NCBI GenBank assembly: GCA_977020255.1
Contig: CDROCS010000681.1
Span: 186,001-250,000 of the forward strand
Direction of reading: 5' to 3'
From: Obrimoposthia wandeli
Taxonomy: Eukaryota
Length of the DNA stretch: 64,000 bases
Below the pieces are notes generated by a model, which had not been told where the DNA came from, searched no databases, and saw only the letters and a list, made by a program, of their open reading frames with translations. Of the stretch, positions 10,701-64,000 are shown piece by piece. The stretch's first letter is position 1. Every line of letters begins with the position of its first letter. A program made the position numbers and the translations under genes.

Positions 10701-13700
10701 AAGCTATTAGAAATATTTTTGATGAATGTGAAACTGTTAAACGAATAATAGAATATTATAAATCTAATACTATTTCTGGTTTTAAAAAGGGTATAATATC
10801 AAACTTCTCGAATTTTATATATATGTGGAAGAACCGAAAAGTGAATCCGGTAATGACAATAGAAATCATATAAATCTTTTTAGGGAATTAAATAAATTTC
10901 TAACGGCTAAAAAAGTCGGTCATAACAATGATGAGAAAAAAATAAAATACATTCATAAAAAAATATTAGTCTTGATAAATATAACAAAAATATATGAATA
11001 AAAAGGAATTTTAATATTTTAAAAAATATTTGACATTGGTACTAAAACTAATTTTGATCTCAAAGAATATGCAGACAAAATAAATTTGGATATAAAAATC
11101 TTAATGAATGACGAAATTATTAAAACTAAAAATGATAACATTATCATAAATATTCAAAACTTTGATTAAAATGGAAGTCATTGGGTTTGTATAAAAGATA
11201 GAAAAGTCTACTTTGATTCGAATATTATAAATTCTACAAAGAAATTGAAAATTTTCTTAAAGATTATGACAATAATACTTTACAATTTTAACCAAATGAT
11301 ACAAAAATATGTGGTATTCTATTTTTATATGTTTTATATAATCTTTTTGGATATATTTTTGATGATGTTATAAAGGAGATTTATGAAGATTTAGAAAGTT
11401 TATTAATTGTTTAGAAATTAATTTTCAATAACTCATTTTCATAAAATTAATCTATATTATCTTTGTGTTGAAGATAGTTTAGAATTATTCATTTCAGATT
11501 CTGTAAAATTCATCATCATTTTCATTTTAGAATATTTATGAATTAAATTCGTATCAAAATATTTAACCTTTTAAATGTTATCGATATCCATTATTTTATA
11601 TATATATATATATGAGTGAAAATGTGAAAGCATTACAAAAAATAAACAATTTATTCTCATCTAAACTATCTACAACGATGACTACTCAAAGTAAAGAATC
11701 GAAATTTGAAATTAATTTTCCATATCATATAAAATTAAATAAGAATTTTATTTTGATTTAGACTGTTGTGGTTTTCATGTTAAAACACAATTTATAATGT
11801 TGATAAAACCAATAATACATTTAATTTTTCTTATATTGGTATAAAATATAATACTGTAACTATAGAACTTAATACATATTACATACAAGATTTATCTATG
11901 ATATTGAATTCAATATTACTTCCAAGTACTAAAATTACTTAAAATATTATAGAAACTAAACATGGTTTATCAAATAGTAAATGAATCTTTTTGTAAATAT
12001 TGTCTTTGAAGATGGTTAATATGAAACAGATATTAATAAACATATAGCATCTCATAACCTTGCACATATCACAAATATAAATACAATCGTATAATGATGG
12101 AAAAGTTTCAAATATTTTATATTCATTTCCATTTAACACTTTTCCAATGGGTAATAAACCATTGAGAGAATGTCCTCAGTTATTTTTCACCTATAAACAA
12201 AATTATATCAATAAAAAAATATTTAAAATAGTTTATGAGGACAGAGAATTAATAAATTTCAATAAGGAAAAATGTATTAAATTTTTATACTATTTATTTT
12301 TATACATTTTTAATAAATATATTATTAGTCCCACCCTTTTGAAAATAAATATGTTAATGAGCATGGAGATAAAATAAAATATTTAAAAGTTGAAGACGAT
12401 CCAGTAGATAATTCTGATGCTATAAATAAAATATATTTTACTAAAGAAATTTTTACAGTTCTTAAAGAATTTAGATTCTTCTGTTAGTGAAAAAATTATA
12501 AAATTAGATGAAAAAATATGATTGCATTAAGATAATTAAATTCTTATGTTAAAAATACGATTTTAAAAGTTCAAACAGACATAGATGAAAAGAGTTTAAA
12601 TTATTTCAAAATTTAAAACCACTAACAAAATTCCTTTAGACTTTAATATTTTTTTTTTTGGTATGGAAAATGTAAACTTTTTGGTTACAACATTCAATTT
12701 TCTGTAGTCAACACACACTCGAATTGTATTGTCTTCTTTTTTCACAATGACCAATGGTGAGTTCCAAGAACTTTCACAACACCTAATTACGTTTACTTTG
12801 AGTAAATTTTCAATCATTTTATCAACTTGATTTCTAAATTTATTGGTTGTCATATAGGATTTTGACAAATTGGGTTGATAATAGTCTCAATTTTATGAAA
12901 CACAATTTTAGTATATCTGGTATTTTATCTATTCTTTCTTTCGAGAAGAACCTTTTCATCGTGCAAGACGAGTCCAAATTACATGCTTCTTGCAGCTGTA
13001 TCCCGAATGTTTTCATTGTATTGATTCCACCAATAAAATCCAGTTTAATTTCTTCTACAACGATATTTCCAAAACTTTCTCCTTTCCATTCCCTAACATT
13101 TTAGTATTGAACCTACCTAAAGGTTGTTGATGACTACTTCAGAAAACATCACTCAAATATAAATTACTCGTTCCTTCATTTTTTACATATTACTTTCTTC
13201 CAACAATCCTTACTCATTACAGAATCCTTACTCACAGAATTTCAACATATACATCATTAATCCTCATTTTACTCCCTTCACGACCATCATTCTTCATATA
13301 CATATTTTCATTCCGTTTTGGTTTTATATTCTCGATCCCACCAACGAAATATGAGTAATGGGATTGCTCACGTTTCACTGATTAACATCATGTATTAACA
13401 TTTTGTCATTTTCATAATCTTCTAAATCTTCTAAATCTTCTTTGTTTTCTCCGACTTCTTCTGTTATACAAAGTAGTCTTATAGTTATATGTGGGTTTTT
13501 TAAAAGATAGCAGCTGTTGAAATTGTGGCCTTCTTTTATGCAAATCAGAAATTTATGATTGAGAGTACATTGGATTCAAAAATGACCATTTTCACCACAA
13601 CAAAAACATGCATCTGGCTGGAGTTTTTCACTCTGTATAACAGGTAGTCCCTTAGCTAATTTATATTTAGTTTTAGATATTTTCTTTCAGGAAACTTTTG

Positions 13701-16700
13701 GTATATGTTTTTTTGTGAATCACTATTTATGTGTATTTTTTCTTCATTAACATATCTTCTTTCTGCATGATGTACTGGTACTGGTACTGAGTTTTTCTTC
13801 GTATTGTTTGAGACATGAGAACGGTTGTATTATCTTTTTAATGCATTAGCATATATATTCTGAACTTATGCAATCACGGTTCTATTTTTCTCAATTTTGC
13901 TATAAACCTTTACCAATGTCTCTATTTCTTCTTTTGGCATATGCAGTTTTAATAAAAACTGTTCATTCAGCTCATCTTTGCTAACGTTATTTTTCATCAT
14001 GGTTTCGACGAGTTTTCTAACTATAATACTGAACGCTGAGAAACGTTTGCCTGCTAATTGCTTCACCTTGCTTCAATATGGTCTGAAAAATATAAAGTAA
14101 TTTTTCATTACAATTAAAGCGTCAAAGATTATATGTAAAGAAGTAACATAACGAGAATAGGACATAAAATCAAATAACATAAATTCAAAGTTACCAACTT
14201 GAAGCACACATTTTATTCGTTCAACAGGAGCAACAATGACAGTAGAAAACAGTCCAGAAATCATTCCTGCTATGAAAACCTGCGATGTTCTAAGAAAACT
14301 GTTAAACTTACATAATACTCAAAATTTCTAACGTCAGAACCTGATTATCATTATTTATCTGCAACTTTCTGCCTATATTGTAACCGAAAAAGAAAGCAGC
14401 ATATATCGGTGTTGCTGCAAATAAAGGAGATGCCATTCCTTTGTAGAACCCATGCGTGCCTTCGCTTTTAAAAATTTTGAAAACACAATCCACGGTTCCT
14501 TTGTATGTAGCAATTTGACCAGGTTTAGGATTCTTCATTGTTTGTAAATGAACCTGTATAAATAGTATTTGGTAAATTGTGTACTATAACTACTTTGTAT
14601 CATTACTTATACAAGTTTGTTTACGTGTTGTAGCTACTTAGATGTGTAAATGTCTGGTTAAACTAAATGCATTTGAATTACAAGAAGCCATGATTATTCC
14701 TCATGGTTGATCATGAGCTCCAAATAAAAACGTAAATGAAAACAAAAATATACATGTTTTGTTCTTTTTACATTTTATTTTTATTAGAATATTACACAAC
14801 TTTCTATAAAATCTAATTATCTTAATCAACAATACCGGAATACATTATATTTAAATAAAACAGAAGACTGAGTTTCCAACGAGGTTTAGAGTCCACTAAA
14901 TTATTTAAAGTATTTTTTATGTTATTATATCTAGTTTATATTTTTAAGATGATGGTAGCTTATGATCATTTACAAGAACTCACTTTAGTAATCCTGACTA
15001 GATTTAACAAAAAATTTAAAATACAATGTTTTTTTAAATTAATCTCAAACAAATGTTTGAGATAAAGCTTGTATTTTTAAAAAACCTGATTTTTCCCGAA
15101 TTTACTCAACATTTTAAAATATTTTGTCAATGATGGTTCTTGTCAGGGGTAATAAAAGTTTTAGTGTAGCAACATACTAATCTACATTGTTTTAATGCTT
15201 TTATTAAATAATTGATAAATATTTGTTTCAATACAAACTTTAAGAGATTGTTTAAAGAAATAACTTCAGCATAAATATGTGATCATAAATATATTTTAAA
15301 ATAATTGTTATTTGATTGTAGCAACGTGTTAATTTGAGATATTTAGGTATAACTTTAGTCATTGGGAACGTATGCAACAAAGTTTCTATAAAAGAACAGT
15401 TTATACTCAGGCATACATGTTAATAAATCATGCATTCGTAATGTTTCTACCCATCCTTGTTTTATAGGCCATAAAGATGACCGGGATCGTTCTCATGGTG
15501 TGTGTGTTTGTACTCAAGCCCACCTAGGGCTACTCCGGATGATTGGTGCACCCAGAGACCAGTGGCAGAAACCCTGGAATCTCTTCAACTTCAAGGCTCT
15601 CAGAATATAATGATGTCATCAGAATTAATCTCGCTTTGAATTTCCATTTTTATGAATTAAAAGTAAAATTAGATTCTATTTGTAGTTTTCTTAAGCTAAT
15701 TAATTTATTAATTTGGTAAAAGACAATTCCTTTAATTTAATGAAATAATATTATAACCTAATTGATGTTCCTTAAGTAGTTAAAAATTTCTAAATTAAAT
15801 TACCAAAACAATCTATTTACAAAACAAGTTACTTATAAATCTAATAACAAGTAAATCTTTCAATATACATAATGTAAAGATCTTTATAAACATAAACAGT
15901 CATTATGTTTGTATGTATGTGTATATTAAACCAATTAAAGGTAATAATATTTTGATTATTTTAACCAATAAGAATGATCTAGTTGTAGTATATATACATA
16001 CTATGTTCTTTAGATTTCAAATGACTTCGTTACAAAAAATTTAAGAAACTAAAAAAGATTTTGGAGTACTTTGAGAAAATTTGGTTTGTTTTAACTTGCA
16101 GTATTAACAACCTAATCAAAATGAATATTGCCGATAGCAATATGAATAGTGCCACTGGCTCGTAAGTATATAATATTACTTTTTTTTAAATAATTTTAAA
16201 ACTAAATTGGATTATTGTACGTGAAAAAAAACAAGAAATCGTGATTATTTTATTAAAAGTATACTAAAAATACACTCTGTCACCAAAAATGTCATCTGTA
16301 TCCAAACATTTATGGAAAAATCGTGCCTTAGGTACATTTGAAACTGTTCAATTTCCCATTCAGGAAATTGGAGACCGTCATTGGTGTACAAATCACATTG
16401 TGAGATCAGAGAAATTGAGCTATATCTTTCAGTGTCGTGTACGGATTTTGATACAACTTCTCCAATAAAATTAATTCACCGACGTCTTCGAAAATTTTGC
16501 ATTTTGATACTTCTCTGGAGCCCCTGCTGATAATATTAGGTAGTTTATATCTCAAATGATTGCTTTGGCTGTGTACCCATTTATTTGTAGTTGTCGATAA
16601 AGAAGATTCGTGTCTTCTCCTCTTTCGTATGCTCAAGTCAAGGCATATTTGAGCTTAGAGGATATTCTAAATTATTTGTTAAAAGTTAGTAATCTGAAAA

Positions 16701-32137: not shown

Positions 32138-33340
32138 TTATATTCCGGGACTCGCTTTCATTTGTTGGAAAAGTCGCCGTAATTCTTCAATATGCGGATT
32201 TTGACGACCATTTTGATTAAAACTTTGAAATATAGGCATTTGAGTTAGGAACAAAGGTGGGGGCATAATATTTCCATGAGCAAGGACATTCTTTACTATA
32301 AGTGGACTAACAATAGCTATATCACGTTCTTCCTTAGACATAAAATATTGCACAGTGATATTTCTTCCGTATAATACAAAACCATTTAGATTTATGATGG
32401 CTGTATGGGCATTTTCTAATGTGTCAAATAACACATATCCCACTGTAAAAGGAATTTTAGGATTCCTGGGTTTATGCAACTTTAAGCTCAGAATTTTACC
32501 GTAAACTATTAGTTTTGATCTTAATTCTTTCTCGGATATACATACAGGAACATTACCAATGAACACATTCCTACCTCGGTAGTAAGCTTCTTTATCAGTT
32601 TTATTAATTCCCAAATCGGGTTCCACAAGCACATAAGAATCATTAATGAGTTCCCCACAAAATTTTTTAATGGCTTTTTCAACATGTTCGTGTGATTTGA
32701 AGTGTATAAAAGCCTGGCTGGATATTTCATTGTTGCTTAATTCAATTTCTTCTATTTCACCAACTTCCTCAAATATCGCCTTAACTTCTTCTTCAGTTAT
32801 TTCAGCATTGAGATTTGATACACAAACTCTGCTACTGTCTTCATACTTTTTCTTATTAGCACAACGAAAATCAAGTTTCTTTTCATAAACAATTGTTTTA
32901 TTCATCGTTTTAATGCATGAATCTACATCATTGTCATTTCTTAGTGTCAACCATCCAAATTTTGCACTCTGACATTTATTGTTCATTATCACTGATATCT
33001 GAGCTATTGGGAAATCTGGATTTATCAGTGTAAAAAGGGTTTCTGCAGTGGCCTGTGAAGGTAGAACTGCCATTTTTATCTGGGCTTTTACAGAATCATA
33101 GTCGTCACGAAATACAGAAATCTGACAAGGATAGTTCATGACAGAAGTAAACTGAGCTTCGTTGAGTAATCTTGTTGCTATGTCTTCTGCAACATTTGTC
33201 AAGTTAGCAATACTCGGTTTACCCGCATTGTGCACTAACGTAAAGATGACATCAGACAAATCAAATTCGACAAAGACGCTACGAAGCAACTCTTCCGTAA
33301 CTTCTCCATTTAAGTCGCTGATGACAAGTTTACGTGTCAT
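32138..33340 (-). CDS. Intronless, divergent polyadenylate-binding-protein-like protein with four RRMs and no MLLE domain, 400 aa
   Basis: Uninterrupted ORF. RRM starts KLVISDLNGEVTEELL, VCVSNLNAEITEEEV and GRNVFIGNVP. RRM4 ends LNGFVLYGRNITVQYFMSKEER (compare PABP ..MNG..V..KPLYVALAQRKEER), followed by a short P/Q-rich tail. Confidence 0.8.
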   Translation of the reverse strand: MTRKLVISDLNGEVTEELLRSVFVEFDLSDVIFTLVHNAGKPSIANLTNVAEDIATRLLNEAQFTSVMNYPCQISVFRDDYDSVKAQIKMAVLPSQATAETLFTLINPDFPIAQISVIMNNKCQSAKFGWLTLRNDNDVDSCIKTMNKTIVYEKKLDFRCANKKKYEDSSRVCVSNLNAEITEEEVKAIFEEVGEIEEIELSNNEISSQAFIHFKSHEHVEKAIKKFCGELINDSYVLVEPDLGINKTDKEAYYRGRNVFIGNVPVCISEKELRSKLIVYGKILSLKLHKPRNPKIPFTVGYVLFDTLENAHTAIINLNGFVLYGRNITVQYFMSKEERDIAIVSPLIVKNVLAHGNIMPPPLFLTQMPIFQSFNQNGRQNPHIEELRRLFQQMKASPGI

Positions 33341-34625: not shown

Positions 34626-35844
34626 ACCGATGACAATTAAAATATTAAGAAGATCATGAAAGGATCTATGATCTTTTTTGTGTTGATATAACTGGACATT
34701 TCTCATCTGAAAAAAAGCAGAAACAAAATAATAACTGATGAGATCAAATGCTTCAAAATCAAAATAAATCTATGGAAATCTAATTTTTTAAAAATTATGT
34801 TTCATAACTTTTTAAATTGTAAAAAATATTGGTAAAGTAGGAACCTTGCTTAATCGACGTGGAAATTTATATTAATAGCAAGAAGCTCTTAGATATTAAC
34901 ATGTCGTATGATAAGGACCACGGATAAGTTTATCTTTAGACTCTTAACATAAATAACAATATTTAGCTGCTTTAAATTCCCTCCAATTTGAAGCAGTCAT
35001 TTTTATTTATTTATGAGTTTTAGCACCAAACCAAAATAAATAATGTAATGTATGTTAGAAATTTTCAATACAAGACTTACCTACATTATGATGATAGCTA
35101 TTTCTTACGGGAGGTGTAAATACAAAACCTGATGCAGCAGGTCAATGAGTTTGTTTGTAAATATTATATGGTATCAACAATGATTCAAAATTTGCATATA
35201 TAACATATTAAGATCTTTAAATTTCGCAAATTCTTGCTCAGGCATATTATATAGCAATTCTCCTTGTTTACTCAATGAACATAATTAAAATTATTTGTCA
35301 TATGCACTTTGTAATCTAAAACTTTGCATACATTTATGACACCACTTACTTTGAATCCTGCTTTTACGAAAATTCAAGACGATCTAAATTTTATACTTTT
35401 ATTTAGTTAAATGTATTTTATTTACTAACAGTAGTAGATTAACAAGTTCATTATTGGTATTTCAAGTCATGTATATGATATTTACAAACAAATGCTTGAA
35501 AATGTCAACCTTTATCTCATCAAAATCCTCATCATCATAATCATATGTTGAGAATATTTTAAGCATTTGAAAAAAAAAAAAAAGATTAAAATTATAAAAT
35601 AAAATTAAGAAATTTCCTTAATTAGGGAAATTTTTGAAGTTATAATCTTTATACACTTTTGCATTTTTATTATCTATTGATCAATCCCCGACCGGCTTAA
35701 CCGGTTTTGCCCTGCCGGGCTCATTGGGGGTATGGCAGACTTATATCTGACTTCGCGATGGGCAATTGCCCGCGAAGTCAGAGATAAGAAGGGAAGATTC
35801 TTTTTTTATCGTGTGCTGACGAACATCGTGGACACATGGTATTA

Positions 35845-36684: not shown

Positions 36685-37420
36685 CCAGCTATTTCCATTT
36701 TCAGTCTCTCTATCTTATCTGACCGGTCCAACAATGTGACAATCTCTAGCGGTTGCTGTTTTCTTCTGCCCGCGTTGTATCAGTTGCTACCGACATTTGT
36801 GATTGCTATAAATAGCAACCATGGAACAAATTATGATCAACAATTTGAAACGATAATTTGATCAACAATTTGAAACAATTTGAAACGATAATTTGATCAA
36901 CAATTTGAAACAATAATTGGATAAACAATTTGAAACGATAATTTGATCAACAATTTGAAACAATTTGAAACGACAATTTGATCAAGATAACATTGTGTTT
37001 ATTATCTATATATGACCAACTATTTCCATTTTCAGTCTCTATCTTATCTGACCGGTCCAACAATGTGACAATCTCTAGCGGTCGATGTTTTCTTCTGCCC
37101 GCGTTGTATCAGTTGCTACCGACATTTGTGATTGCTATAAATAGCAACCATGGAACAAATTATGATCAACAATTTGAAACGATAATTTGATCAACAATTT
37201 GAAACAATTTGATAAACAATTTGAAACGATAATTTGATCAACAATTTGATAAACAATTTGAAATGATAATTTGATCAATAATTTGAAACAATTTGAAACG
37301 ATAATTTGATCAACAATTTGAAACGATAATTGGATCAACAATTTGAAACGATAATTTGATCAACAATTTGAAACAATTTGAAACGACAATTTGATCAAGA
37401 CAACATTGTGTTTATTATCT
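36685..37420. repeat. Two-unit tandem repeat (about 330 and 400 bp) with variable-copy AATTTGAAACGATAATTTGATCAAC subrepeats
   Basis: Units begin CCA.CTATTTCCATTTTCAGTCTCT at 36685 and 37016. Confidence 0.9.
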
Positions 37421-38831
37421 ATATATCTATATATTAATTCTCAATAATTTGAGTTTTAGATTTGTCGATTGACTTATATAATTCCCAACTTAAATATTAA
37501 CACATATTTAAATTTATTATACATTTATTGATAGATTTTTTTACTTTTCAAATATTAGTAAATCTAAAAGCCTCGTTGGAATTTTAGAAGAATTATATTT
37601 AAAAGTTTTTAGTTAACATATTTCTTCTAATCAATTTCAATTTAAAAGATGGACTTAGTCCAATCAAATTCAATGGTTTAGTTATATTAACGGATGAAAT
37701 TCATGTCTTTGTTACAAATTAGTATAAAAGAACGTGCAATTTGAGAACAAATCATTATAAATGCATTCATATCAAAGACAATTATCAGTGATGGAATATA
37801 GCCAACAGATATTAAGCGATGCTGAAGATTTAGAAATGTTTGAAGAATCGTATAAGGATATGTATGAAGAAGTGAAACCATATTTCAAATACAAAATCAG
37901 ATTCTTGAAGAAGCCTCAACTGATTGCTTTAGTAAATCCTGTGACAATTGAAATAAGAAAGTTTAGCTATTATCTATCAAATATTTAAAAACCTAATTTT
38001 CAATATCTTAAACAGGAAGTTGAAAAAGCAGTTCCAAGTTTTACATTCAATAAGAACGAATTTTATATCTGAGGAGCTAATTCAGTATTTTTAGATGAAT
38101 ATGTAAGATAAATAGATGTTGATGCGATTCCTATAAAGAAGCAATGAATTGTAACAATTTTTAAATTTTAACAACATCTGATATTGATCAATTGAAAAAT
38201 ATTTTGGGATTTTACATACCTGATTATGTATATGAAGGAAATTCTTTCCAGCTTCAAACTGATCCTAGTCTGACTTTTAGAGATGACCTAGGTTATTTGA
38301 TTGTTCCAAATTTAGATGAAGAACGATGAAATATTTCAATATGACTCTATGGATATTATCCTGATGCTAATGAAAAAAATAACATATTTGGACTTTGAGT
38401 GGAGCTAATATGGTGTTTTATATATATATATATTTTTAAATGAATTATTTTAAATAAATTTTACCTTATATTTTGTTTTTCTCCTATAAATTATATAAAT
38501 CTAACCTATATATTTTGTCCTTCTAACATACATGTAGTAATTTATTCATTTAAAATCTGTTATAAGATGTCCTTCTAACAGAAATGAAATAGTTGTCATA
38601 TATTCATATAAAATTATTATCTAAAATCTCGTTTACGATAAGTCGATGGGGTCAATATGGATTCCTGTGGTTTTCTTTTATCACTTTTGAGATTGGACGA
38701 AAAATTTAATTCCAAGTAACACACAAAACAATTGGTGAGATGGATTAGACAGGACAAACAGGCATAAATTTCCCTCCACACACATGCACTAAATTTTACT
38801 CCACATACATGCACGGTTTTAAAGGACAATG

Positions 38832-39600
38832 AGTAGGTAGATGTGTGACTTCTGGAACAAAGCCCCCCCCCTGAGGACAAGTCAAAAATCTAGGTCAAAT
38901 TTTTTGATGAGGACAAAAAATTTAGGTCAAATTTTGAAATTTCCGCGGAAAATTTGAAATATCGGTCAAATTTTTTGAAATTTGCGCGAAAATTTTTGAA
39001 ATTTGCGCGAAATTTTTTGAAAATGTTTAAAATTTCCATGAAATTTTATGAAAATTTTGAAATTTGCGCAAAATTTTTGAAATCAAATATTTTATGACAG
39101 ATGTAGGTCAAATTTCTCCCGAGTACACATGACTTTTTTATTTAAAGTCATGACCTCATAAGGTCAAGGGCATGTCCTCATGAGGTCATGGGAAAAATCT
39201 AGATCATGACCTCATAAGGTCAAGGGCATGTCCTCATGAGGTCAATGTCTAGGTCATGAGCTCATGTGCTCACCATGAGCCCAAAGTTATCATCAAGGTT
39301 ATGAGCTCATGTGCTCACCATAAGCCCAAAGTTATCATCAAGGTTATGAGCTCATGTGCTCACCATGAGCCCAAAGTTATCATCAAGGTTATGAGCTCAT
39401 GTGCTCACCATGAGCCCAAAGTTATCATCAAGGTTATGAGCTCATGTGCTCACCATGAGCCCAAAGTTATCATCAAGGTTATGAGCTCATGTGCTCACCA
39501 TGAGCCCAAGGTTATCATAAGCTTCATGCTCACTATGAGCTCATGTCATGAAAGACAGACATCTAAGCACATCATCATCTAAAAGGAATTATTATTAATC
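38832..39600 (+). mobile_element. Orphan Maverick/Polinton terminus, same orientation as and related to the one at 54353
   Basis: AGTAGGTAGATGTGTG... is 27/31 identical to 54353-54383; 39090-39132 is identical to 54632-54674 (43 bp); no core genes follow. Confidence 0.75.
39256..39545. repeat. 45-bp minisatellite, 6 copies plus a partial, each containing the palindrome ATGAGCTCAT
   Basis: Units at 39256, 39301, 39346, 39391, 39436 and 39481. Confidence 0.95.
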
Positions 39601-39799: not shown

Positions 39800-39980
39800 C
39801 TAAATCCAATTCAGCAGCAGCAGAACCGATGACATTTACTGCACACATAGTTCAATACAAGGCAGAGATTTTCTCTTCCCTACTGTACACTCCAATACAA
39901 GGCAGAGATTTCCTCTGCCTTGTATTGAACTATGTGTGCAGTAAATGTCATCGGTTCTGCTGCTGCTGAATTGGATTTAG
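39800..39980. repeat. Perfect 68-bp-arm inverted repeat (foldback) with a 45-bp spacer
   Basis: 39800-39867 is the exact reverse complement of 39913-39980. Confidence 0.95.
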
Positions 39981-43718: not shown

Positions 43719-44299
43719 ATGTTATAGCATTGCCAATGATGGCATTACCTTCCAGCAACTCTTGTACAATAGAACCACTTAATAAATGGATAACTCTATC
43801 TTCCGACATTTCACGTATGGATTCAGATAAGGTCAAATTATTGAAGCTTGATATAGGAAGTTCAAATGGTCTGAAGCGACGTAGATCACAAAGTCAGAAT
43901 GGTCAAGAGTCCCTCACATATTTTAATGGTGAAAACAACCTAATCATAGCCTCAAAAGATGATTCACTGATGGACTCTTCGATCTTGTCGAATTCATTGC
44001 CAAATGATTCAAGTATTACTCACAATCAATGGGGTAAAACTAAAACTAAAAAGGAGACACATAATCGAGTAGAGAGAAAACGAAGAGATTTTATAAATGC
44101 TCAAATTCAGAAATTGTCAAAATTGCTACCGCAAGAATATTTTATAAATAATGATCTTAAAATGAACAAGGGCCTCACATTGAAGAATTCAGTTGAATAT
44201 ATCAGTAGTTTGAAATTTGTAGACACATTTAATCAGCACTTATTAAAAGAAACGGAATATGCAGCAAGAGTTATTAAATTACTTCTAAAATCTAATGAG
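43719..44299 (+). CDS. bHLH(-ZIP) transcription factor exon, MiT/TFE-USF group
   Basis: KKETHNRVERKRRDFINAQIQKLSKLLP...NKGLTLKNSVEYISSLK. In-frame acceptor TTTTAG at 43718 and donor GAG|GTATGT at 44300; other exons not firmly located (possible short final exon at 44378). Confidence 0.8.
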
Positions 44300-45232
44300 G
44301 TATGTCAATTTATGTTTTGATTAAGGGGACCTAGAAGGATTCACAGTTTTTTAACGTTAATGACTTCAAATTTTCAGATATCGTTGATTTTATGTGAACA
44401 AAGAAATTTTTGTTTTCAATTATCAATTATATCGGGTGATCTTCACTTCAGTACTAGATAATTTAATATATTTTTTAAATAATTTTTAAAATATCTGCTT
44501 TTGCAAGAGTATCAAAACTTTATTGAGTTACTAATTAATATCTTTTTTCTTCCTAAAAATATATTAGTAAATGTTATTAATAGAAATAAATTTATCGTTG
44601 CACAATTTTTTCAAAAATCATTACTTTTTATTTGTTGGATGAAATTGTTTCAAATTTGCAGTAAAGTTTGTTAGTGTTACTCGATTACAACCTAATTATG
44701 AGGTCTTGGGAAGCTCTAATGGTTTAGTAAACAGCGATTCTTTTAGTTAATAGCGTCACACAGAAAATGGAAATGCTCATCTGCATTATAATATTAGATT
44801 TTTTACACAAGCTTTTATTAGTACATATTGTACATTAGTAAATTAAAATCATAAAGAAAATAAATGAATACTTATGGTTAATATGCGACTTCAATAATAG
44901 ATCCTATCACTGATAGAATATCACCTAGTTTCTGGCCCTGATACTAAATTTTAAAAATAATTTGGTATGTAAAATTAAAATATCACAAACATACACGGCG
45001 AGCATAAAGAAGCATCCAATGCAAATCAATCGTGAGACACAATTTTTGATAAAATTATTTTGTTGGGGTTTCTATTGAAACTCTTTATTCAAATAGATCC
45101 CCGTAAGGAGGCCCCCAACGTGAGTTCTGTAGCGATAGGGCTTACATATGGATGTGGCCTACTTAATTCTGAAGGTTTTGTGTCTTATTGTTTTGTGGTG
45201 GTTCAATGAGTTGTGTTCACAATTAAATTCTT

Positions 45233-51862: not shown

Positions 51863-52000
51863 CAAGCCAATCCCCAGGTGATTAAGGCCTAGTGATCACT
51901 GCAATTAGAAGTTGGGAACCTGGTCAAGGGAATGGTTGGTTGCCAAACCAGGCCTTATAAATGCAGAGAGTGGCTCGGTAAGTCTGGCGGTTTTTATGTT
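51863..52000 (+). promoter_or_regulatory. Promoter-like module, copy 1
   Basis: AGCCAAT, CAGGTG, GATTAAGGCCTAG, CACTGCAATTAG, CCTTATAAA, GAGAGTGGCTCG; alignable to 53496-53636. Confidence 0.55.
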
Positions 52001-53495
52001 AAAGTTTTGAAGAACAACCATAAAAACCAATTTGATAGCAAAAGCGTGGTTATTACTTACCACTGAATGTAATAATGGAAGTGGGGAGCCTGTAACCCCT
52101 TTAGTTGTTGACTGAGGGGGAATCCGGCAAACCCGAATGAAGTGAGGTTGGAGCAGTTGGAGGCCGCCTTGGGCCTAAGTAAAGTGAGAAAGTTGTGCGG
52201 GTAAGAGCGCATGTGTGGTGCCTTAAACGGCACTATGCGATGGTCAAGAGCTCGGGATACTCTCCAGCTGCGAATGGAGTTCAGAGCGATCCTTGGAGAA
52301 CAAGGACGACGGATGGGGCTGTCTCGACCTGGACTTTGATGTCTGGGCCGATGACAAAACCAACGAGGTCTCAGCGACGTATATCGAGCGAAGCTATACG
52401 GAGAGCATGAGTAACATTTTATCCAGTTGGAGCTGGGACAACATTTTGGAGTGTGGAGTGGAGCAACTTCGGAGCTACGAGGCTGCAAGTGGTTAAACTG
52501 TGGCAGGTGATAATGATCCCAAAATTAACACTGACTTGCGGTTTATGAATACCCGCAATGGAAAAAAACTGTTTGTATAAACTCTGATAAAGAGTTGAAA
52601 GGGAGTCAACAGGGAACGTAATAAACACTTCTGTGGATGCAACAGCCATAGATCGCCCAATTGAGAAAGTTGGGAGCTGTTGCAAAATTCTAAAAGAAGT
52701 GACTGTGACGAAGTGGTTCACCTGTAGCTCAGATTTTGAAAGACAAATTCTGGAGAAAATAATCGAATACCCGAAGGAAGAAAGGCAAATTTTAACTACA
52801 CTGAAGGTGGCAAAATTATTATTTTTATATATAGATATATATAGATGATCTGTTGGCCTGGGTTCATGTTGTGGATATGGCTATGAACAAAGTTCGGCTG
52901 AAGTTTATAAGAAAGCTACAGTTGATGCCGAATATGTTTTCCACAGAAAGTAAAGCCAATATGGATTTAGTTAGAGTAAGAGCAATTGATTGGAAGGAAC
53001 GAGAAGAAGAGCTAGCGGTGATGAAGAATCGTTTGTTAGGGGAGTGGAAAGCAAAAAATCTCACGATAGACGAAGCCTAATTTTATATGATGTTGAACGG
53101 GAGATCAGTTGGAGGTCAAGTGACGTGCAATGTAATTGTGGAAGATGACTTAGTAGTGTGATTGTTGAGATTGAAGAGAGGTTTAAATGACGAGGAGATT
53201 TTAAAACAAGGAGTACGTCAGAAACGTGTAGAAAAATTAGTTTAGACGAGATTACGAAATAGAGTATTAGCTAGCTTAGAGAATCCGGTGATTAATGAAT
53301 TAAAACATGAGTACGAATATCGGTGCCTTGAACTTGTGGAGAAATGGACGGGTTTGTGGATTTAGCGAAGAGATTGGAACATGATGAGACAGTTTGAGGC
53401 TGAGTTAGCAGTGATCGAGAGTAAATATTATGAGTGGGAAGAAATAGGGGAAATGTAATCAAGGCGAGAGTTGGGAGTTTAGTAAGTTTGCACTC

Positions 53496-53636
53496 CAAGC
53501 CAACCCCCACGTGATTAAGGCCTAGTAACCACTGCAATTAGCAGTTGGGGCCTGGCCAGTAGATTGGCTTGAATTGCCCAGTCAGGCCTTATAAAAGCCG
53601 AGAGTGGCTCGATAAGTAGAGCGACTTTTTAATGTT
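53496..53636 (+). promoter_or_regulatory. Promoter-like module, copy 2
   Basis: Same motif order, with CACGTG E-box and CCTTATAAAA; ORF 53651-53992 follows. Confidence 0.55.
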
Positions 53637-53992: not shown

Positions 53993-54420
53993 AAGCTGCA
54001 AGGTAACCCCTGTGATTCCTAGGGGATTGACCTAGACTTCGTGAAGCCAATACTCAGAAAAATGGTTAACTCTGAGCCGCCAATACAAGCAGTGTGGCGG
54101 CGCTCTGCTCAATGCCATCGGTAATGGATAGCCAAGGGTCGATGTGCGACGCCTGACAGAAGTTGTAGGGACTCGTTTGGGCGTGGTGCTGGAGGATGCA
54201 CGGTCTTCGAATTTGGTCGCAACTACCTGTCCGAACCTAACAAAATCTAATGAACATGTTAGACAGGTGAAAATTTGCGGTTTCTTACGACAGAGGATTC
54301 ATGTAATTCATTTCCAGCCTCACAAAAGCATAGCTCTGTTAATAGGTTCATGAGTAGGTGGATGTGTGTCTTTCGGAACAAAGACATTTTGACCCCCCAG
54401 GAGAAAAATTTTTATGAAGG

Positions 54421-54905
54421 TCAAAAATGTAGGTCAAAATTTTTTGAAATTTGCGCGAAAATTTCTGAAATATAGGTCAAATTTTTGAAATTTGCGCTAA
54501 ATTTTTTGAAAATTTTTGAAATTTGCGCGAAAATTTTTGAAATTTCCATGAAAATTTTGAAATTTGCGCGAAAAAATTGAAATATAGGTCAAAATTTTTG
54601 AAATTTGCGCGAAAAATTTTGAATTCAAATTTTTTATGACAGATGTAGGTCAAATTTCTCCCGAGTACACATGATTTTTATTTAAATTCATGAGGTCAAC
54701 TTAAGGTCACGGTGAGGACAAGATGTAGGTCAAGTCAACCATGTGTCTTTCGGAACAAAGACCATGAGTCATCGATGAGTCATCGATGAGTCATCGATGA
54801 GTCATCGAACAAAGACCATGAGTCATCGAACAAAGACCATGTGTCTTTCGGAACAAAGACCATGAGTCATCGATGAGTCATCGAACAAAGACCATGAGTC
54901 ACCCA
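54421..54905. promoter_or_regulatory. Subterminal motif arrays: TTTCGCGC x4 (minus), WAWNTAGGTCA x3, TGAGTCA x8
   Basis: GCGCGAAA at 54453, 54525, 54566, 54607. AAT.TAGGTCA at 54426, 54469, 54581. ATGAGTCA at 54764, 54775, 54786, 54797, 54818, 54862, 54873, 54894. Confidence 0.6.
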
Positions 54906-55128
54906 TGAGGACAACTTAAGGTCATGGTGAGGTCAAAGAGATTCTATTTTTAGTAACATACTTAAATTCTATTTTTAGTAACATACTTAAATTCTATCTA
55001 ACAAAGACAGTCACGCATCTATATTGCAAATACTTGCATCTTTATGTAATCAATAGTAACATTTATTCTTATACATGTATATATGTGTGAGTGTCTAACA
55101 AAGACACTGCATCTATATTGTAATGTAA

Positions 55129-55494
55129 TTACAAAGTTTTTGGTCGGTTTGCTAAAAAGTTTAGTTTTGGACCAAGATAAGCACTAGGATCCTTTTCAAA
55201 TGCTTTTGTAAGTTTATCTAATTTTACAAAAATATCAAGCATACCATCTCCTTTTTGTATACCATCTCCTTTTTGCACTTGTTTCTGATTTTGTATACCT
55301 CTCAAATAATCCACATTCTTTTTGTGCTTTATAGCTTTTTTATCAACTCCGCCAAACCATCTACCTAAAAGATTTGCTGCCATCATATGAATACCCAAAC
55401 CTTCCATGATTTTCTTTTTACTCATAGTCTTTTTACTCATAGTCTTTTTAACCCTAGTCTTTAATGATTTAGTAGGTTTTTTAGTCATTTTCAT
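55129..55494 (-). CDS. Small lysine-rich element protein (possible core/DNA-binding protein), about 121 aa
   Basis: Likely start MKMTKKPTKSLK at 55494; basic N-terminus; MEGLG and QKGDG x2 motifs. Confidence 0.6.
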   Translation of the reverse strand: MKMTKKPTKSLKTRVKKTMSKKTMSKKKIMEGLGIHMMAANLLGRWFGGVDKKAIKHKKNVDYLRGIQNQKQVQKGDGIQKGDGMLDIFVKLDKLTKAFEKDPSAYLGPKLNFLANRPKTL

Positions 55495-55579
55495 AATAAA
55501 TATTAAAGTATCACTATTGTTTATAATATAATAATAAATAATATATATAAAATAATACAAATAAAGACACAAAAATTTA

Positions 55580-55969
55580 TTAGTCAACTCTAACAGCATC
55601 AATTAGTTTCCATATCGGAGTTTCCAATCCACTGGGCCCGATCTTGCATCCTTGAATTCTGATTGAGATAATCCATTCTAGCTTAGGAGGAGGTGCTTCG
55701 TATATTGTTCCATTCTCATGCTTGAAAGTGGCAGTTGATCCTTTGATTACGAATTTGTTTTCCTGAAGTGCATAGTTGATTCCGAATTGAGTCAAGAGAA
55801 TATTGATTCTCTCTTTATCCACAGAAGTCAAATTTGATATTTCAAAATCAAATTTAAGCGGCTCGATGTTGATAGGAAAAATAAAATTATAGTTATGAGC
55901 TTTCTTCAAAAAGTGCATCTCATATCCAAAATATGTATGCATAGGTTGATATAGCTTTTCGAAATTCAT
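55580..55969 (-). CDS. Hypothetical 129-aa element protein, possibly an OB-fold/SSB-like protein
   Basis: Clean ATG ORF; the beta-rich C-terminus WIISIRIQGCKI..PIWKLIDAV only loosely resembles viral SSBs. Confidence 0.5.
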   Translation of the reverse strand: MNFEKLYQPMHTYFGYEMHFLKKAHNYNFIFPINIEPLKFDFEISNLTSVDKERINILLTQFGINYALQENKFVIKGSTATFKHENGTIYEAPPPKLEWIISIRIQGCKIGPSGLETPIWKLIDAVRVD

Positions 55970-56286: not shown

Positions 56287-56328
56287 CAAATAGTTGCAAA
56301 TAGTTGTAATGTGGTCTAAAAATAGATT
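56287..56328 (+). promoter_or_regulatory. 42-bp module, identical copy at 58010-58051
   Basis: CAAATAGTTGCAAATAGTTGTAATGTGGTCTAAAAATAGATT, followed by TATATAAG (56338) or TTATAAA (58061). Confidence 0.7.
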
Positions 56329-56373: not shown

Positions 56374-57370
56374 ATGACTACTAAATTTATTGCACATTAT
56401 GTTTCAGAAAACGGAGAACTCACCATTAGACGACGGCGTTTTGATAATATTTCAAGAATAAATGAAAATATGATATATGAAGAAAGAAGATTAGAATCGT
56501 TACAAGCAAAGTTTACTGGTTTAGCCCATAAGAAAGCTTTAGCAAAAGCAGGATTTTACAAGCACGATGGTTCGAAAGATAATGTAAAGTGTATTTACTG
56601 TCAGGGAGGAATATCAGGATGGGAGTACTATCTGAAACCAATGAAGCAACATCAGCTATTTTTCCCAAGATGCCCGTTTGTTTTGAAAATGAATGTTTCA
56701 AACGTACCAATAATTGATTCCAGCACCACCCAAATTGATTTTGATACAACTCCAATGGATAAAGTAGTTATTGTGCGCAATAATTATTCTAATGATATTG
56801 AAATACCTACATTATCGATTTTCGATCATGTATATATTTGGAATGATTCTTATCGATGTTGTTTCTGTCGGCCAGCAGTACCCCGACTTGACCTTATTGA
56901 TACTATGCCTGATCTTTCATACTCGAGATTGTAAAGCATCTAGTATGGGAATCAAGAACGGATGTATTGTTGAATATCATATTAGTAATGATGAAATTGA
57001 TGCCCAGATGGAAACTCGTCAAATAGTTTTGCTGAAACGTGATTACAGCCATGATAGAATCAAAGCTGTTTTAGTTAATAGGTTTAAAACATTCGGTAAT
57101 AAATATGATTCTATATATGAGTTTATAACGGATTTAAGGTCTTTAGAAATAAAATCTGAACCAAAACATCGGATAAATTATCTCGAGTACCTCTTACCAA
57201 ATCCCGAATGTGTTGTTTGCATGAGTGATGCGATTTCCGTGGCATTTTTACCATGCGGTCACTTAAACACGTGTATTAAATGTTCAGATCGTTTTATTAC
57301 ATGTCCATATTGCAAGACAATTATCATTAGACGAGTAAGAAATATTAGATTTCATAGCATAGGCAATTAA
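56374..57370 (+). CDS. iap: Inhibitor of apoptosis (BIR, degenerate second BIR-like segment, RING); one frameshift near 56860-56925
   Basis: BIR: ERRLES..LAKAGFY..DNVKCIYC..GW..KQH..FPRCPFV. RING: CVVCMSDAISVAFLPCGHLNTCIKCSDRFITCPYC. Confidence 0.9.
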
Positions 57371-57433
57371 GCAAATCTAAAAATATATGTTCAAATTGTA
57401 TAAATAGAAGAAATCAGTTTATAATAATCAGAA

Positions 57434-57970
57434 ATGCTACTTCATAATATCAAATTAGTGAATATTAATTACAAGGGAATGGTTGTAAGTAACATTCAAC
57501 ACTTACCATTTCGGACTTCGAAGCCTCATCAGTATCGACTCAAGTGTGAAGGTTACACTATTATCATTTTCAAATCTGGTAATTTATATTTACATTTATA
57601 TATAATTCTAATTTAGGTACATGCAGAATAATGGGTTGCAAAACAGTGCTGGATGAAAGCAGTCTTCCTTTTGATATAAAAATCGAAAGAATCCAATCAA
57701 TCAGTCTCAGCAGCAATCTAGAAACATCGATAAACCTAAACAAGATGAGCAAGAGTATGGGATCAGAAGCTGTTTACGAGCCAGAAATCTTCCCGGGACT
57801 TCGATACGTCAAATACAATCCCCTATGCGTGAACATTTTTTGCTAGCGGGAAGATTATGATACTCGGTGTTAAATCTTTAAACTATGAGTATCTGATTGA
57901 ATGTATTTTGTTTAATATAGATCTTCACACTTGTGTTATTTATTTCCTAAACCAAATAGTTTTAAAATAG
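57434..57970 (+). CDS. TATA-binding-protein-like protein: exons 57434-57578 and 57617-57970, 38-nt intron, one extra T at 57836-57841; about 165 aa
   Basis: Splicing gives IIIFKSGTCRIMGCK (repeat 1). YEPEIFPGLRY..VNIFASGKIMILGVK is repeat 2 (TBP consensus YEPELFPGLIY..LIF.SGK.V.TGAK). Confidence 0.8.
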
Positions 57971-59318: not shown

Positions 59319-60549
59319 TTATACTAGTACTGTTCCTCCCTTGGTAATTTGAACCTCAGAATCGAATACTCCATAGATTATAATATTAGTAGGATGTTCA
59401 AGTGCTTTTGAAAACTTGATTTCTACTTTCAAATTTCCCTGTTTAGGTATTTGAGCTTGATTAATATCGAAATCAGGAGAGAGAACAAATGTGAACAGTG
59501 TATACTTGTCCTTGAAATCAGTCATTGAAATTCCAATATTAGCATCCTTATCCAAATGACCAAGATTTCTAATTAAAGATTGCACATAAGAAAACACATA
59601 ATCATCGTTTTCAAAAGTCTTTCGTATAAGATTTTTTATAACCAATTTTTGGGGAAATTTAAATTAAACTCACATTCATGTGTCCAAATTGAGAAACCTC
59701 ATTTTTAGACTCACCTCCATAGGTAGAAGTGTTTTGGAAAGCAATTAAAACAAAGTTTGGAAGTTGCATATCACCAAAAATCTGATCCTTGTAATAAGAT
59801 AGTGCTCCTGTAGGGATAGCGTGAGAAACAAGATTAGTTTTTCTAATAGGATAACATGCATTTTGCTTCTCCAACCCCATTCGATGTGCAACAAGTACAG
59901 ATGGTTCCACCTTTACTCTTCGAACCAGCAGTTTTGCTTCCGTAATCTCAATTGCGGTTTTAATAGTATCAGCGCAAACAACACTAAAACCTACTGGATT
60001 TCTCTTCATCCGAATATGTGCACTTACACCGGGTAAAAGATACTTTGGTTGCTTAAAGAAATCCAAATGGAGACTCCCACAAAGTGACAATACTTTAGAC
60101 TTTGCAATCGAAGCAATTCTTCTTTTTTCATCATTGTCAAACCCAATTGCATCAAGATTAATCAATTTCGTATCATTACCGTAATTCAACAATGTTTCAA
60201 TCATTGCTTTATGAGTGTAGCTAGTATTATTTCCCTCAACTTTCACATTATTGAGACTGAGAATCACATCCTTGAAAAGAGTATGCAACATGTAATTAGC
60301 TGATTTGATATCCATACCATCATCCAAATCACCTCCACCTTCCTTTGTAACTTTCAATTTAACGAGAAATAAACTATCATTCAAATCAAGATATTGAGTA
60401 TTGGATCCATTAATATTGAATTCTAAATCCGGAGAAGATGTCCCGTTAACCGTATTTGTCGGAAATATTTCTTCAAAACTAGCACTATCAACCACAACCT
60501 GAGGTATAGGTTTATCGAATATACACAATTCAGTTTTAGCACAACTCAT
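59319..60549 (-). CDS. Major capsid protein (double jelly roll), interrupted by TAA at 59659-59661 and a +1 shift at 59613-59616
   Basis: CAKTELCIFDKPIPQVVV, LEFNINGS..YLDLNDS, LHLDFFKQPKYLLPGV, FTFVLSPD..GNLKVEIKFSKAL..IIIYGVFD: Polinton MCP patterns. Confidence 0.9.
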
Positions 60550-60913: not shown

Positions 60914-61925
60914 AATTTACGAAAATGAACCGTTAAACTTGTTTTAGCTGTAAGCAAATGTAATTAATCTTCCAGAATCATTACGTATATTAACTTCAAT
61001 ATTGTTTATAGAAGAACTCACGGGAATATACATTGGATTTTCAATTGGAATATGTATAACATCACCATACTTGTGCTTTTCCTGTTGAACCCAAATTGCT
61101 TTAATTAGGGAAGTTTCCTTCCTCCTACGAATATTGGTTCGGTAATACTCGTGTAGATATAAATCTGATTATATGCATTAGTCATTTTAGGAATAATCTT
61201 TGCTTTGAAAACCTCATTTTTATTTTCAAATTCATTTTCATCAAAACCGATAATTGAGGCTAATGATTTATCCATGATGATTTTATCAATATTGGATTTC
61301 AATTTGAAATGAATCAATTTATTAACTAGTTTAAAGTTTTCAAATACATTTGGTAACACTGTTTTAAAATGTTTACACATACTTTTGCTATCGGCAAAAA
61401 GAAAATCATTGGGAACTGAATATATTTTCCTCTCGCGTTTAACGAATCTATTTTTATCTTGAATGTAATTATCGGATACTTGACATGATTATCCATAATT
61501 TTTGAAACTGCATGCTTACCTTTTTCAACGTTAGGCGGAAATCCATATTGTTCTGCAACAATTTCATCATTAAAAACTATTTCAAAATTATCCCCTTTTC
61601 CCATAATTTGAATTCGATTCTCTTTATTTAAAAAGATTGTGAAATCATCGCCCGCCTTAATACGAGCCAAATCCATTTGACCCTTATCAAATAGTAAAGT
61701 CACATCAGTTACTTTATCAACTTCACGTTGGGTAATATATTCAATCTCAGTTTCACTTTGAATAGATAGAGGAGAGTAATTGAAAGAAAATTCCGTAAGA
61801 GCAGCTTCCCAACCACCAGGTAAATTGATTGAGCTTTGATAATCAATACTAAAACTATTAGCAGTATTATTCGGTTGAGTTAATGGCGAACCATTACTTG
61901 GTAATACAACATACATTGAGTTCAT
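60910..61925 (-). CDS. Minor capsid (penton) protein, two frameshifts (near 61411-61413 and 61114-61122)
   Basis: MYVVLPSNGS..PNNTANSF..INLPGGWEAALTEFSF; IYIYTSITEP; NPMYIPVSSSINNIEVNIRNDSGRLITF..LTVHFRK*. ATGA overlaps with both neighbours. Confidence 0.85.
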
Positions 61926-62950
61926 TCTATTTGAGAAGCTAATATCCAACTAGGTTCAGTATATCCATGCCACTTAACATGATATTGTTTATGCTTTCCT
62001 CTACCTTTTGTCTCTAAAATTTCTTGGATTCTATATACATTCGGTTTCTCAGGCAAGACTTGTAATTCCTCATGATAAAATTTACCCGTGATTACCTTAT
62101 TGGTTTCATCCTCAATGAAATACATTACCGGCATACGTTTATTATCAATTTTAGTTATACGAAATACTTCATCACTCCAATTCTCTTTGAAATTCTTTAT
62201 AAAAGGAGTAGTACTAATTTGAGAAATACGTACATAATCACCAACTTTATACTTGGGTTTCCGCGCAACTTGACTTTGGTTACGGCGTTGCCAAATTGCC
62301 ATAGCATTCTCATCTGTAACATCAACGGGTCTCTTTCGGTCTAATGATGAGTGTTCACTATGATTGTATGCATGTATTATTTGAGGTAAAACAGTAACCC
62401 AGGACTTATTTCCCTGCTTTGTGAAATACTTTTTCAAACGATCTCTCAATGTTCGATTAAAACGTTCAACTAAAGCGGCTTTATATTGGGAAAATACTGA
62501 GTAATGATTAATATTATGTTTTTTCAATAGTGTTTCAACATGTTTATTATAAAACTCCTTTCCACTATCCGTTTGGAAATTTCTTGGTTTTATTTCTTTA
62601 ATCAAAAGCTTCATTGCGGTTAAAACATCGGTACCAGACTTAGACTTTAATGGAATAGCTCGCGCGAATCTGCTAAAGACATCAACACAAGTTAAAATAT
62701 ATCGATATCCGTTGTTAATACTCGCATACGGAATCATTTCCATCAAATCTGCTTGCCATAAATCATTCGGGCCGCTCGTTTTGTATGATCTCGTTGGGAA
62801 CCGACGTCTCATTGGTTTGTTTAAGCTGTAAGCTAATTGATTTCTCAACCACGCCTGAGTTTCCTGCTTTGTCTTCTTTGTCTCTTTTGCTAATTTTGAA
62901 ACCCCTGTGTAACCAACGGGATGACTTGGATCGAACCATATTTTCTCCAT
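61922..62950 (-). CDS. int: Retroviral-type DDE integrase with a C-terminal chromodomain-like segment, intact, 342 aa
   Basis: WQADL (D), FQTDSGKEF (D), ALVERFNRTL (E); C-terminal YRIQEIL..YHVKWHGY..SWI. Confidence 0.95.
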   Translation of the reverse strand: MEKIWFDPSHPVGYTGVSKLAKETKKTKQETQAWLRNQLAYSLNKPMRRRFPTRSYKTSGPNDLWQADLMEMIPYASINNGYRYILTCVDVFSRFARAIPLKSKSGTDVLTAMKLLIKEIKPRNFQTDSGKEFYNKHVETLLKKHNINHYSVFSQYKAALVERFNRTLRDRLKKYFTKQGNKSWVTVLPQIIHAYNHSEHSSLDRKRPVDVTDENAMAIWQRRNQSQVARKPKYKVGDYVRISQISTTPFIKNFKENWSDEVFRITKIDNKRMPVMYFIEDETNKVITGKFYHEELQVLPEKPNVYRIQEILETKGRGKHKQYHVKWHGYTEPSWILASQIE

Positions 62951-63420: not shown

Positions 63421-64000
63421 TTAATCAATTTTTAACTTCGGGTTTAACAGTTTCCTTTTAAAATTCATCTTCTCAAAACTGGTTTCTTTTGTTTGTTTAT
63501 AGATGGTTATTCCCGATGGATTGAATACATCAGTTCTAACTCTAAAGTCATCGGGACAATCTTGAGTAAAATCAATAAAAATGTATCCATGAGGAATAGT
63601 AGTTGCATCTTGAAATGAATCAATTAAAAACTTTCTATTATTCGGGTAAGCTTGTCTTGAAACAAAATCAACAACCGTCTGATCACGTGGATTCTTGAAG
63701 AGAACAAGGTAATGTACATTTAAATTACGAGTTCTATGGTTCCCTCCTTGATGAAATAGATTTTGTGTGATGAAAATAACAGTTACTTCCCGATGTCGTG
63801 CTATTTTAGTGAATAAATTATTGAAATCACTCTCTTTATTTGCTTCTTGATATAAATCATCAATAACAATAACATCATGTCGTTGTAATCGCTCAGACCA
63901 ATTATCATCGAATCCATTAATGACTTTTATATTTTTTGATTTTCTTAAACTCTTTACTGGTTAAACCAGCTTCTCCATCTCCTCCCTGATGCCAGTATAT
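63421..64000 (-). CDS. A32/FtsK-like genome-packaging ATPase, C-terminal part (partial; +1 shift at 63932-63937)
   Basis: Hand translation, absent from the ORF track: VIVIDDLY (Walker B), KIARHR, IFITQNLF, LFKNPRD, HGYIFID, FRVRT; stop at 63423-63421. Confidence 0.92.

Follow-up and report, generated by a model that had tools for sequence, protein, structure and literature searches.

The end of a Maverick-type element in the window, i.e., the whole 64-kb stretch of DNA analysed here, carries a tandem array of composite units in which an E2F-type 8-mer, TTTCGCGC, is followed at a fixed distance by the hexamer TTCAAA. On the minus-strand reading the hexamer lies exactly 4 nt downstream of the 8-mer at all six sites, four of which belong to the array and two to a second, orphan end. 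We propose, with a confidence that stops a little short of even, that the array could be a subterminal switch of the DREAM/MuvB type, which would be held silent in resting cells and freed once they enter the cell cycle. The first-pass annotation had suggested timing to S phase via E2F; the cell-cycle part of that suggestion gains support from a CHR hexamer 4 nt from each of the six sites, whereas an array of 8-mers alone is insufficient to carry it.

Composite units in a degenerate repeat

All six occurrences of the 8-mer in the window are minus-strand ones: the main end has them at 54453, 54525, 54566 and 54607, the orphan end at 38984 and 39005; the broader pattern TTTSSCGC finds the same six positions and no others, and a variant site, TTTAGCGC, occupies 54494-54501. 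This motif count bears out the earlier report of four exact minus-strand copies with one variant in the main end and two copies in the orphan end. The surrounding DNA had also been described as CpG-poor, which has to be corrected: the window is GC-poor instead (30% G+C), with an observed/expected ratio of 0.80 for CpG against 1.00 for GpC, i.e., without CpG depletion. Under 100 dinucleotide shuffles the 8-mer had a mean count of 0.31 and a maximum of 2, against six observed; however, since the six sites are the cores of one tandem repeat in homologous ends, they represent one motif amplified, a single event, and the shuffle test therefore exaggerates their significance.

Both halves of the unit fit consensus motifs, the 8-mer the E2F-type core TTSSCGC and TTCAAA the CHR consensus TTYRAA. 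Scanning for motif and spacing placed the four exact composites of the main end (8-mer, 4-nt spacer, TTCAAA) at 54443-54460, 54515-54532, 54556-54573 and 54597-54614, and a spacing scan added a variant composite (TTTAGCGC, 4 nt, TTCAAA) at 54484-54501, all on the minus strand. In the orphan end two exact composites lie on that same strand at 38974-38991 and 38995-39012, and the palindromic unit TTTCCGCGGAAA (38933-38958) presents CGCGG, 4 nt and TTYRAA on both strands. Three variant units retain CGC or CGG at the equal distance from the hexamer. Since this geometry was defined in print beforehand, it counts for the DREAM reading. In the relevant passages of the literature, MuvB binds TTYRAA, the CHR, through its LIN54 subunit, and an E2F-DP site or CDE stands four base pairs upstream from the CHR in many DREAM-repressed promoters (PMC4974476); in S-phase genes an E2F site with the motif TTSSCGC is followed 4 nt downstream by a CHR-like element, the E2F site being tolerated in either orientation (PMC5716687, Table 1 for the motif); TTCAAA is functional as an inverse CHR (PMC4176359); and the DREAM peaks of C. 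elegans share an E2F/CHR hybrid motif (PMC5683655). A passage of PMC3874167 likewise gives the 4-nt spacer, the hexamer itself falling outside that passage.

The layout points to DREAM/MuvB rather than to plain activating E2F, by which factors of the E2F1-3 type would act on the 8-mer in S phase while TTCAAA would be incidental scaffold, an alternative that we regard as very unlikely. The adenovirus E2 early promoter carries an E2F site, and there, as in parvovirus P4, a linear DNA virus ties its early genes to proliferation via host E2F; these are one or two experimentally tested sites in a defined promoter, unlike the tandem array described here, and we know of no tandem E2F-CHR array in E2F-dependent viral promoters. 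Activation by E2F would agree with its use by the terminal promoters of other DNA viruses (the parvovirus P4 promoter is E2F-dependent, according to the part of PMC4323056 that concerns it) and with the fit of the 8-mer to the TTSSCGC of S-phase genes, but it is opposed by the consensus CHR at DREAM spacing in six of six copies. Moreover, the element ORFs from 55580 to the end of the window contain no LxCxE motif, so that no element protein is visible which could free E2F as adenovirus E1A does; LxCxE-type proteins are encoded by many adintoviruses, as stated in the relevant section of PMC8502044.

The 8-mers form the core positions in a tandem repeat, degenerate and of 21/41-bp period, which spans 54425-54623 in the main end and 38918-39083 in the orphan end. 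Repeat and phasing analysis delimited the minisatellite of the main end to 54418-54652, with A-tracts every 9-11 bp. Its variable core slot is filled by GCGCG (four times), AGGTC (four), GCGCT (once) or CCATG (once), and across the units the slot takes at least six forms, varying more than any other part of the unit. The first-pass annotation had tied its reading to conservation of the core among copies, a point that the two ends answer only in part: in the 13 anchored units of the two ends compared, CGC or CGG is retained at the site in nine, and other cores replace it in four. These units were chosen by an A/T anchor, so that the lower variability of the A/T scaffold relative to the core is partly circular and scaffold conservation is inflated. 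In units with an AGGTC core, the hexamer is broken in two of two cases in the main end and in none of one in the orphan end. The CCATG-core unit (54544 and 39034) contains TTC-N3-GAA in both ends, presumably a motif of the STAT type, which illustrates how easily a palindromic scaffold matches some motif.

Chance and the structural alternative

Shuffling the 13 letters of the unit outside the 8-mer, which itself stayed in place, put TTYRAA at a spacer of 4 in 0.94% of trials (0.0094), its background being 0.0062 per base. As all copies stem from one ancestral unit, this figure of 0.01 is that of a single trial, and since both orientations are open to the E2F site and its boundary could shift by a base, the chance of the hexamer with other geometries allowed is better put at about 0.02-0.05, again for one independent trial.

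Control searches were made in prokaryote and viral sequences. No fewer than 120 prokaryote loci, and 72 viral contigs, have three copies of TTTCGCGC clustered in about 100 bp, and such frequency in prokaryotes makes an array of 8-mers alone weak evidence. TTYRAA stood at +4 of 1 in 457 prokaryote sites (among the matches listed) and 3 in 281 viral sites, and it did so in at least half of the copies at none of the 120 prokaryote loci (again among the matches listed) and none of the 72 viral ones. The control clusters understate chance because they are mostly GC-richer, with 4 of 120 prokaryote loci (among the matches listed) and 4 of 72 viral loci below 40% G+C; no gene resembling those of the element was found within 3 kb of any of the 72 viral clusters. 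Two exact composites in tandem were matched once in 596 billion prokaryote bases, and tandem composites or exact array patterns were matched nowhere in the viral contigs, where the pattern was slightly unlike the prokaryote one. The single match is a 41-bp tandem repeat of Treponema saccharophilum (L070, 2900-3200), in which all seven visible units contain TTTCGCGC and two have TTCAAA 4 nt downstream; as this organism is without E2F, chance is able to build such an array.

The clusters of the 8-mer in prokaryotes and the full composite in a bacterial repeat thus favor a neutral or purely structural minisatellite, in which slippage and recombination would have amplified an A/T palindrome-rich unit and the E2F and CHR look-alikes would have arisen by chance. 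We consider this rather unlikely, and the same holds for its structural form, according to which bent or nucleosome-poor DNA would be what matters, if anything does. In its support, the strongest A-tract phasing of the window lies in the two arrays: at a helical period of 10-10.75 bp, the 12 highest-scoring of 3150 sliding windows all fall within them, with best scores of 13.8 and 13.4 against a median of 3.7, in a scan that excluded windows starting at 54801-55600. The many forms of the core slot point the same way, as do arrays of TTYRAA that arise elsewhere in the window, e.g., at 36700-37430, where an unrelated control array contains TTYRAA 17 times without any E2F site. Within that interval a 329-bp unit is duplicated, and its 25-bp arrays abound in TTTGAA. 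The units are, furthermore, imperfect palindromes, with a fold z of -3.6 for both ends and no dominant structure. A stable hairpin as the main explanation, i.e., a hairpin origin, was rejected (MFE frequency 0, weak centroids), and a scan for bacterial promoters, irrelevant to an animal element, was at chance level (5 vs 3.2).

What a neutral minisatellite would require in addition is a spacer coincidence of roughly 1 in 20 to 1 in 100 beyond the textbook 8-mer. It is also opposed by the motif content of the ends, in which the repeat cores fall into three motif classes: in a panel of 28 motifs, written after the motifs had been seen, seven of seven end units matched, against 3 of 26 other short-period arrays, one of those three in the element end itself. 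The seven units overlap and reduce to the three classes, the match of the 45-bp unit rests on its first copy only, and shuffled units match some panel motif in 13-38% of trials; the enrichment in the element ends is suggestive, not decisive. Finally, AGGTCA and ATGA..TCAT palindromes persist in both ends even where the alignment is lost and the repeat units differ.

The element, its ends and their other motifs

As judged from its sequence and a structure model, the element is of the Maverick type, with an rve integrase, a double-jelly-roll capsid and a conserved gene order. The first gene directed away from the tip is IAP-like (56374-57370, plus strand), with BIR and RING pieces in two frames matched by Pfam, and it is followed on the same strand by a TBP-like gene, also in pieces (57428-57846; Pfam TBP match and relatives). 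The latter was found in eight relatives as well (L002, L006, L011, L021, L025, L026, L035 and L263) and is therefore a regular accessory gene of the element group. The predicted double-jelly-roll major capsid protein is encoded in two pieces on the minus strand (59319-60549); its model (pLDDT 74) was matched by Foldseek to vaccinia D13, the PBCV-1 capsid and the mavirus capsid at E values of 2e-7 to 5e-6, while a sequence search of solved structures returned 0 matches. The integrase (61922-62950, minus) matches Pfam PF00665 with an E value of 3e-14, and a putative packaging ATPase, cut by the end of the window (63421-63960, minus), has 49-82% identity to ORFs of relatives, among them several with a P-loop of the GPSGSGKT type. 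Neither the ATPase piece nor the cysteine protease pieces in the window gave a Pfam match. Metagenome relatives repeat the succession ATPase, small ORF, integrase, minor capsid, small ORF, major capsid and protease, and several element genes to the right of the array are broken into pieces. A protein-primed DNA polymerase B is absent from the visible part of the element; in the relatives L006, L011 and L015, ORFs of 1089-1298 aa stand in the expected polymerase role, with only sub-threshold matches to endonuclease VII. Among viral contigs, relatives numbered 0 by capsid, 0 by ATPase and 1 by integrase.

The putative left tip is AGTAGG (54353-54358, plus strand), a 5/6 match to AGTAGT, which is described as the common end motif of vertebrate Mavericks in the part of PMC8097293 that deals with ends. 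The homology between the two ends sets in at about this motif (54353 and 38832) and amounts to 74% over 386 columns, with 26/31 at the tip and 78/82 directly past the array; the array is thus likely subterminal, lying 100-260 bp inside the putative tip. The word AACAAAGAC, which recurs from 54377 to 55097, joins it to the element body. The 64-kb window contains neither an opposite end, with which this one would form the terminal inverted repeats of a Maverick/Polinton, nor the 6-bp target-site duplication typical of such elements. The orphan end (38832-39560, plus strand), delimited by homology and repeats, has the same orientation as the main end and comprises the tip AGTAGG, the 21/41-bp array, AGGTCA half-sites in mixed orientation and a 45-bp array of TGAGCTCA. 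No element genes were found to its right by tblastn, and the only other remnant of the element found is a decayed polymerase-like relic 3.5 kb outside it (34821-35380, minus), to which the long polymerase-like ORFs in L006, L011 and L015 show 31-41% identity. Directly right of the orphan end lies a MITE-like 80-bp inverted repeat (39800-39980; 94%, 21-nt loop). Adjoining the tip of the main end, a pair of diverged direct repeats (80-91% identity), separated by 1633 bp, flanks decayed G-rich DNA at 51863-53629, possibly an old LTR-type insertion. Elsewhere in the window, Pfam matches mark a divergent intronless RRM gene (32138-33340), an HLH gene (43736-44320) and a piece of a reverse transcriptase (3365-4201), and exons at 5915-14583 on the minus strand, recognised from their translations, resemble what we take to be a mitochondrial carrier gene. 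The host is a eukaryote of A/T-rich DNA whose genes are spliced, and the type of the element makes an animal the most likely host. In a comparison with sequencing runs, four from a single sample contain a 0.88-0.89 share of the sequence words and may derive from the source itself; no RNA run is among those listed.

Further motifs surround the array. AGGTCA occurs 10 times in each end, out of 41 in the window, and all eight copies of WWNTAGGTCA are in the ends. In the main end motif scans found 5-nt-spaced chains of half-sites on the plus strand, one of AGGTCA/AGGACA with spacings of 5, 5 and 6 nt (54693-54732) and a second with spacings of 5 and 5 nt (54908-54935), which we take to be of the nuclear-receptor direct-repeat type, whereas in the orphan end the half-sites alternate in direction. 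Repeat and motif scans also showed an array of eight TGAGTCA, presumably AP-1-type motifs, interleaved with AACAAAGAC (54764-54901), and a 25-bp repeat (54941-54997) whose core, CTATTTTTAG, we assume to be of the MEF2 type. All four exact CTAAAAATAG/CTATTTTTAG words of the window (54944, 54969, 56316 and 58039) lie within the element, two of them in an identical 42-nt stretch at 56287 and 58010, the first of which is just upstream of the IAP-like gene. All seven copies of TGAGCTCA in the window are in the orphan end, in a repeat unit unlike that of the main end.

An array of this kind might instead be read by proteins of the element itself, such as the packaging ATPase, the integrase, a polymerase complex or the TBP-like protein, in the manner of the adenovirus packaging domain. 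In the pertinent section of PMC5033970, the adenovirus A-repeats are TTTG-N8-CG motifs 21 bp apart at nt 220-400, the CG of which is bound by the IVa2 ATPase. The resemblance is considerable, as these repeats are likewise A/T-rich and bipartite, 21 bp apart and a few hundred bases from an end, in the PRD1-adenovirus lineage. The array here, 100-260 bp inside the tip and with a 21-bp period, offers TTTG-N7-CG or TTTG-N9-CG on the plus strand in every composite, and the element carries both ATPase-like and TBP-like genes; however, TTTG-N8-CG itself is matched 0 times in either end, and spacer length matters in adenovirus, where 4 added nt reduced packaging (PMC5033970, same section). There is, further, no link from the proteins of the element to the DNA of the array, and the exact CHR geometry would be left unexplained, so that we judge this reading of the array unlikely. 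Binding by element proteins and by host factors would be compatible.

The composite array is absent from 69 + 4 related metagenome loci, none of which has a recognisable end. The stretch past the TBP-like gene of L263 is repeat-rich and without the motif. A single composite in L023 was taken as chance and not as an element-end site because the surrounding stretch looks coding rather than terminal, and weak BLAST matches of the ends to L006 were set aside as low-complexity A/T DNA. At the start of the contig of L055 (1-220) there are short repeats that contain TGAGTCATC and ACAAAGAG and bring to mind the array at 54764-54901.

Proposed action and meaning

Under the DREAM/MuvB-type reading, the repeated unit would join an E2F/CDE site to a CHR hexamer across a 4-nt spacer, recurring every two or four helical turns and set in a stiff scaffold of phased A-tracts, which together could form a docking module for host factors inside the element end; motifs, spacing and phasing are present in two diverged ends. 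Host E2F-DP and LIN54/MuvB would bind it jointly as DREAM and silence the element end in cells that rest or have differentiated. When cells enter the cycle, the pocket protein would depart and activating E2F or Myb-MuvB would take its place, and this release might make the end accessible to transcription of element genes or to the initiation of replication, with the adjoining AGGTCA and ATGA..TCAT arrays possibly adding further inputs. DREAM is argued to sit on nucleosome-free DNA, in the relevant passage of PMC4974476, which the phased A-tracts may favor. The ORFs nearest to the array point towards it, the first ORF reading away beginning only at 56374, 1.75 kb further in; for this reason the array of the main end would work from a distance, in the way of an enhancer or silencer and not of a core promoter, or else on replication. 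An inverted copy at the other end of the element may face a promoter.

The tandem E2F/CLE and CDE/CHR promoter elements to which DREAM, Myb-MuvB and FOXM1-MuvB bind share with the array the E2F-type GC core, the 4-nt spacer and TTYRAA, and TTCAAA is a documented orientation. They are mostly single and located at the transcription start site, whereas here four to five tandem copies lie in a phased A-tract repeat, at the end of a mobile element and with the nearest genes pointing towards them. Amplified E2F motifs have been described in DNA transposons before, namely in MITEs of Brassicaceae (Henaff et al. 2014, via PMC7329337); the same part of PMC7329337 holds that E2F binding in MITEs may aid transposition, not host-gene regulation, and a second study cited there is listed as retracted. 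These MITEs are plant, non-autonomous elements for which that account mentions no CHR partner, while the present element is most likely animal and encodes a capsid. With Mavericks/Polintons of the adintovirus type it has in common the rve integrase, the double-jelly-roll capsid, the ATPase-protease-capsid module and an AGTAG-type tip. The descriptions of Maverick end motifs and TIR lengths in the relevant parts of PMC8097293, PMC10748475 and PMC8502044 are without E2F, CHR or host-factor arrays, and accessory IAP-like and TBP-like genes at the array-bearing end distinguish our element from what those parts describe. Literature on E2F, terminal repeats and factor binding, considered by title and abstract and with the CHR/DREAM pairing outside its scope, yielded no host-factor arrays at Polinton/Maverick ends, and PMC6947457 mentions neither E2F nor Polintons. 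In the full texts covered, Polinton, Maverick and E2F stand together in an aphid genome report. E2F sites in viral promoters and plant MITEs are already known; to judge from the literature covered, the tandem E2F-4 nt-CHR unit at a Maverick end would be new.

The Maverick papers, in the parts relevant here, define the elements by their genes and end motifs, and the question addressed by the present finding is what switches them on and in which cell type. A tandem E2F-4 nt-CHR unit predicts selection on both half-sites and on the spacer, as well as binding by E2F-DP and LIN54. A broader view, which we put forward tentatively and think somewhat unlikely, is that Maverick/Polinton ends would be modular host-sensing switchboards, with a tandem DREAM cassette beside nuclear-receptor and bZIP arrays, such that the host quiescence complex would set latency and cell-cycle entry would lift it. 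Should the proposed switch prove false, the array would be an ordinary subterminal minisatellite. If it is true, DREAM/MuvB control would reach beyond host promoters to an endogenous DNA virus, there would be a concrete cis-mechanism for the silencing and timing of animal Mavericks, and scattered orphan ends such as 38832-39560 would constitute mobile DREAM sites within the genome of the host.
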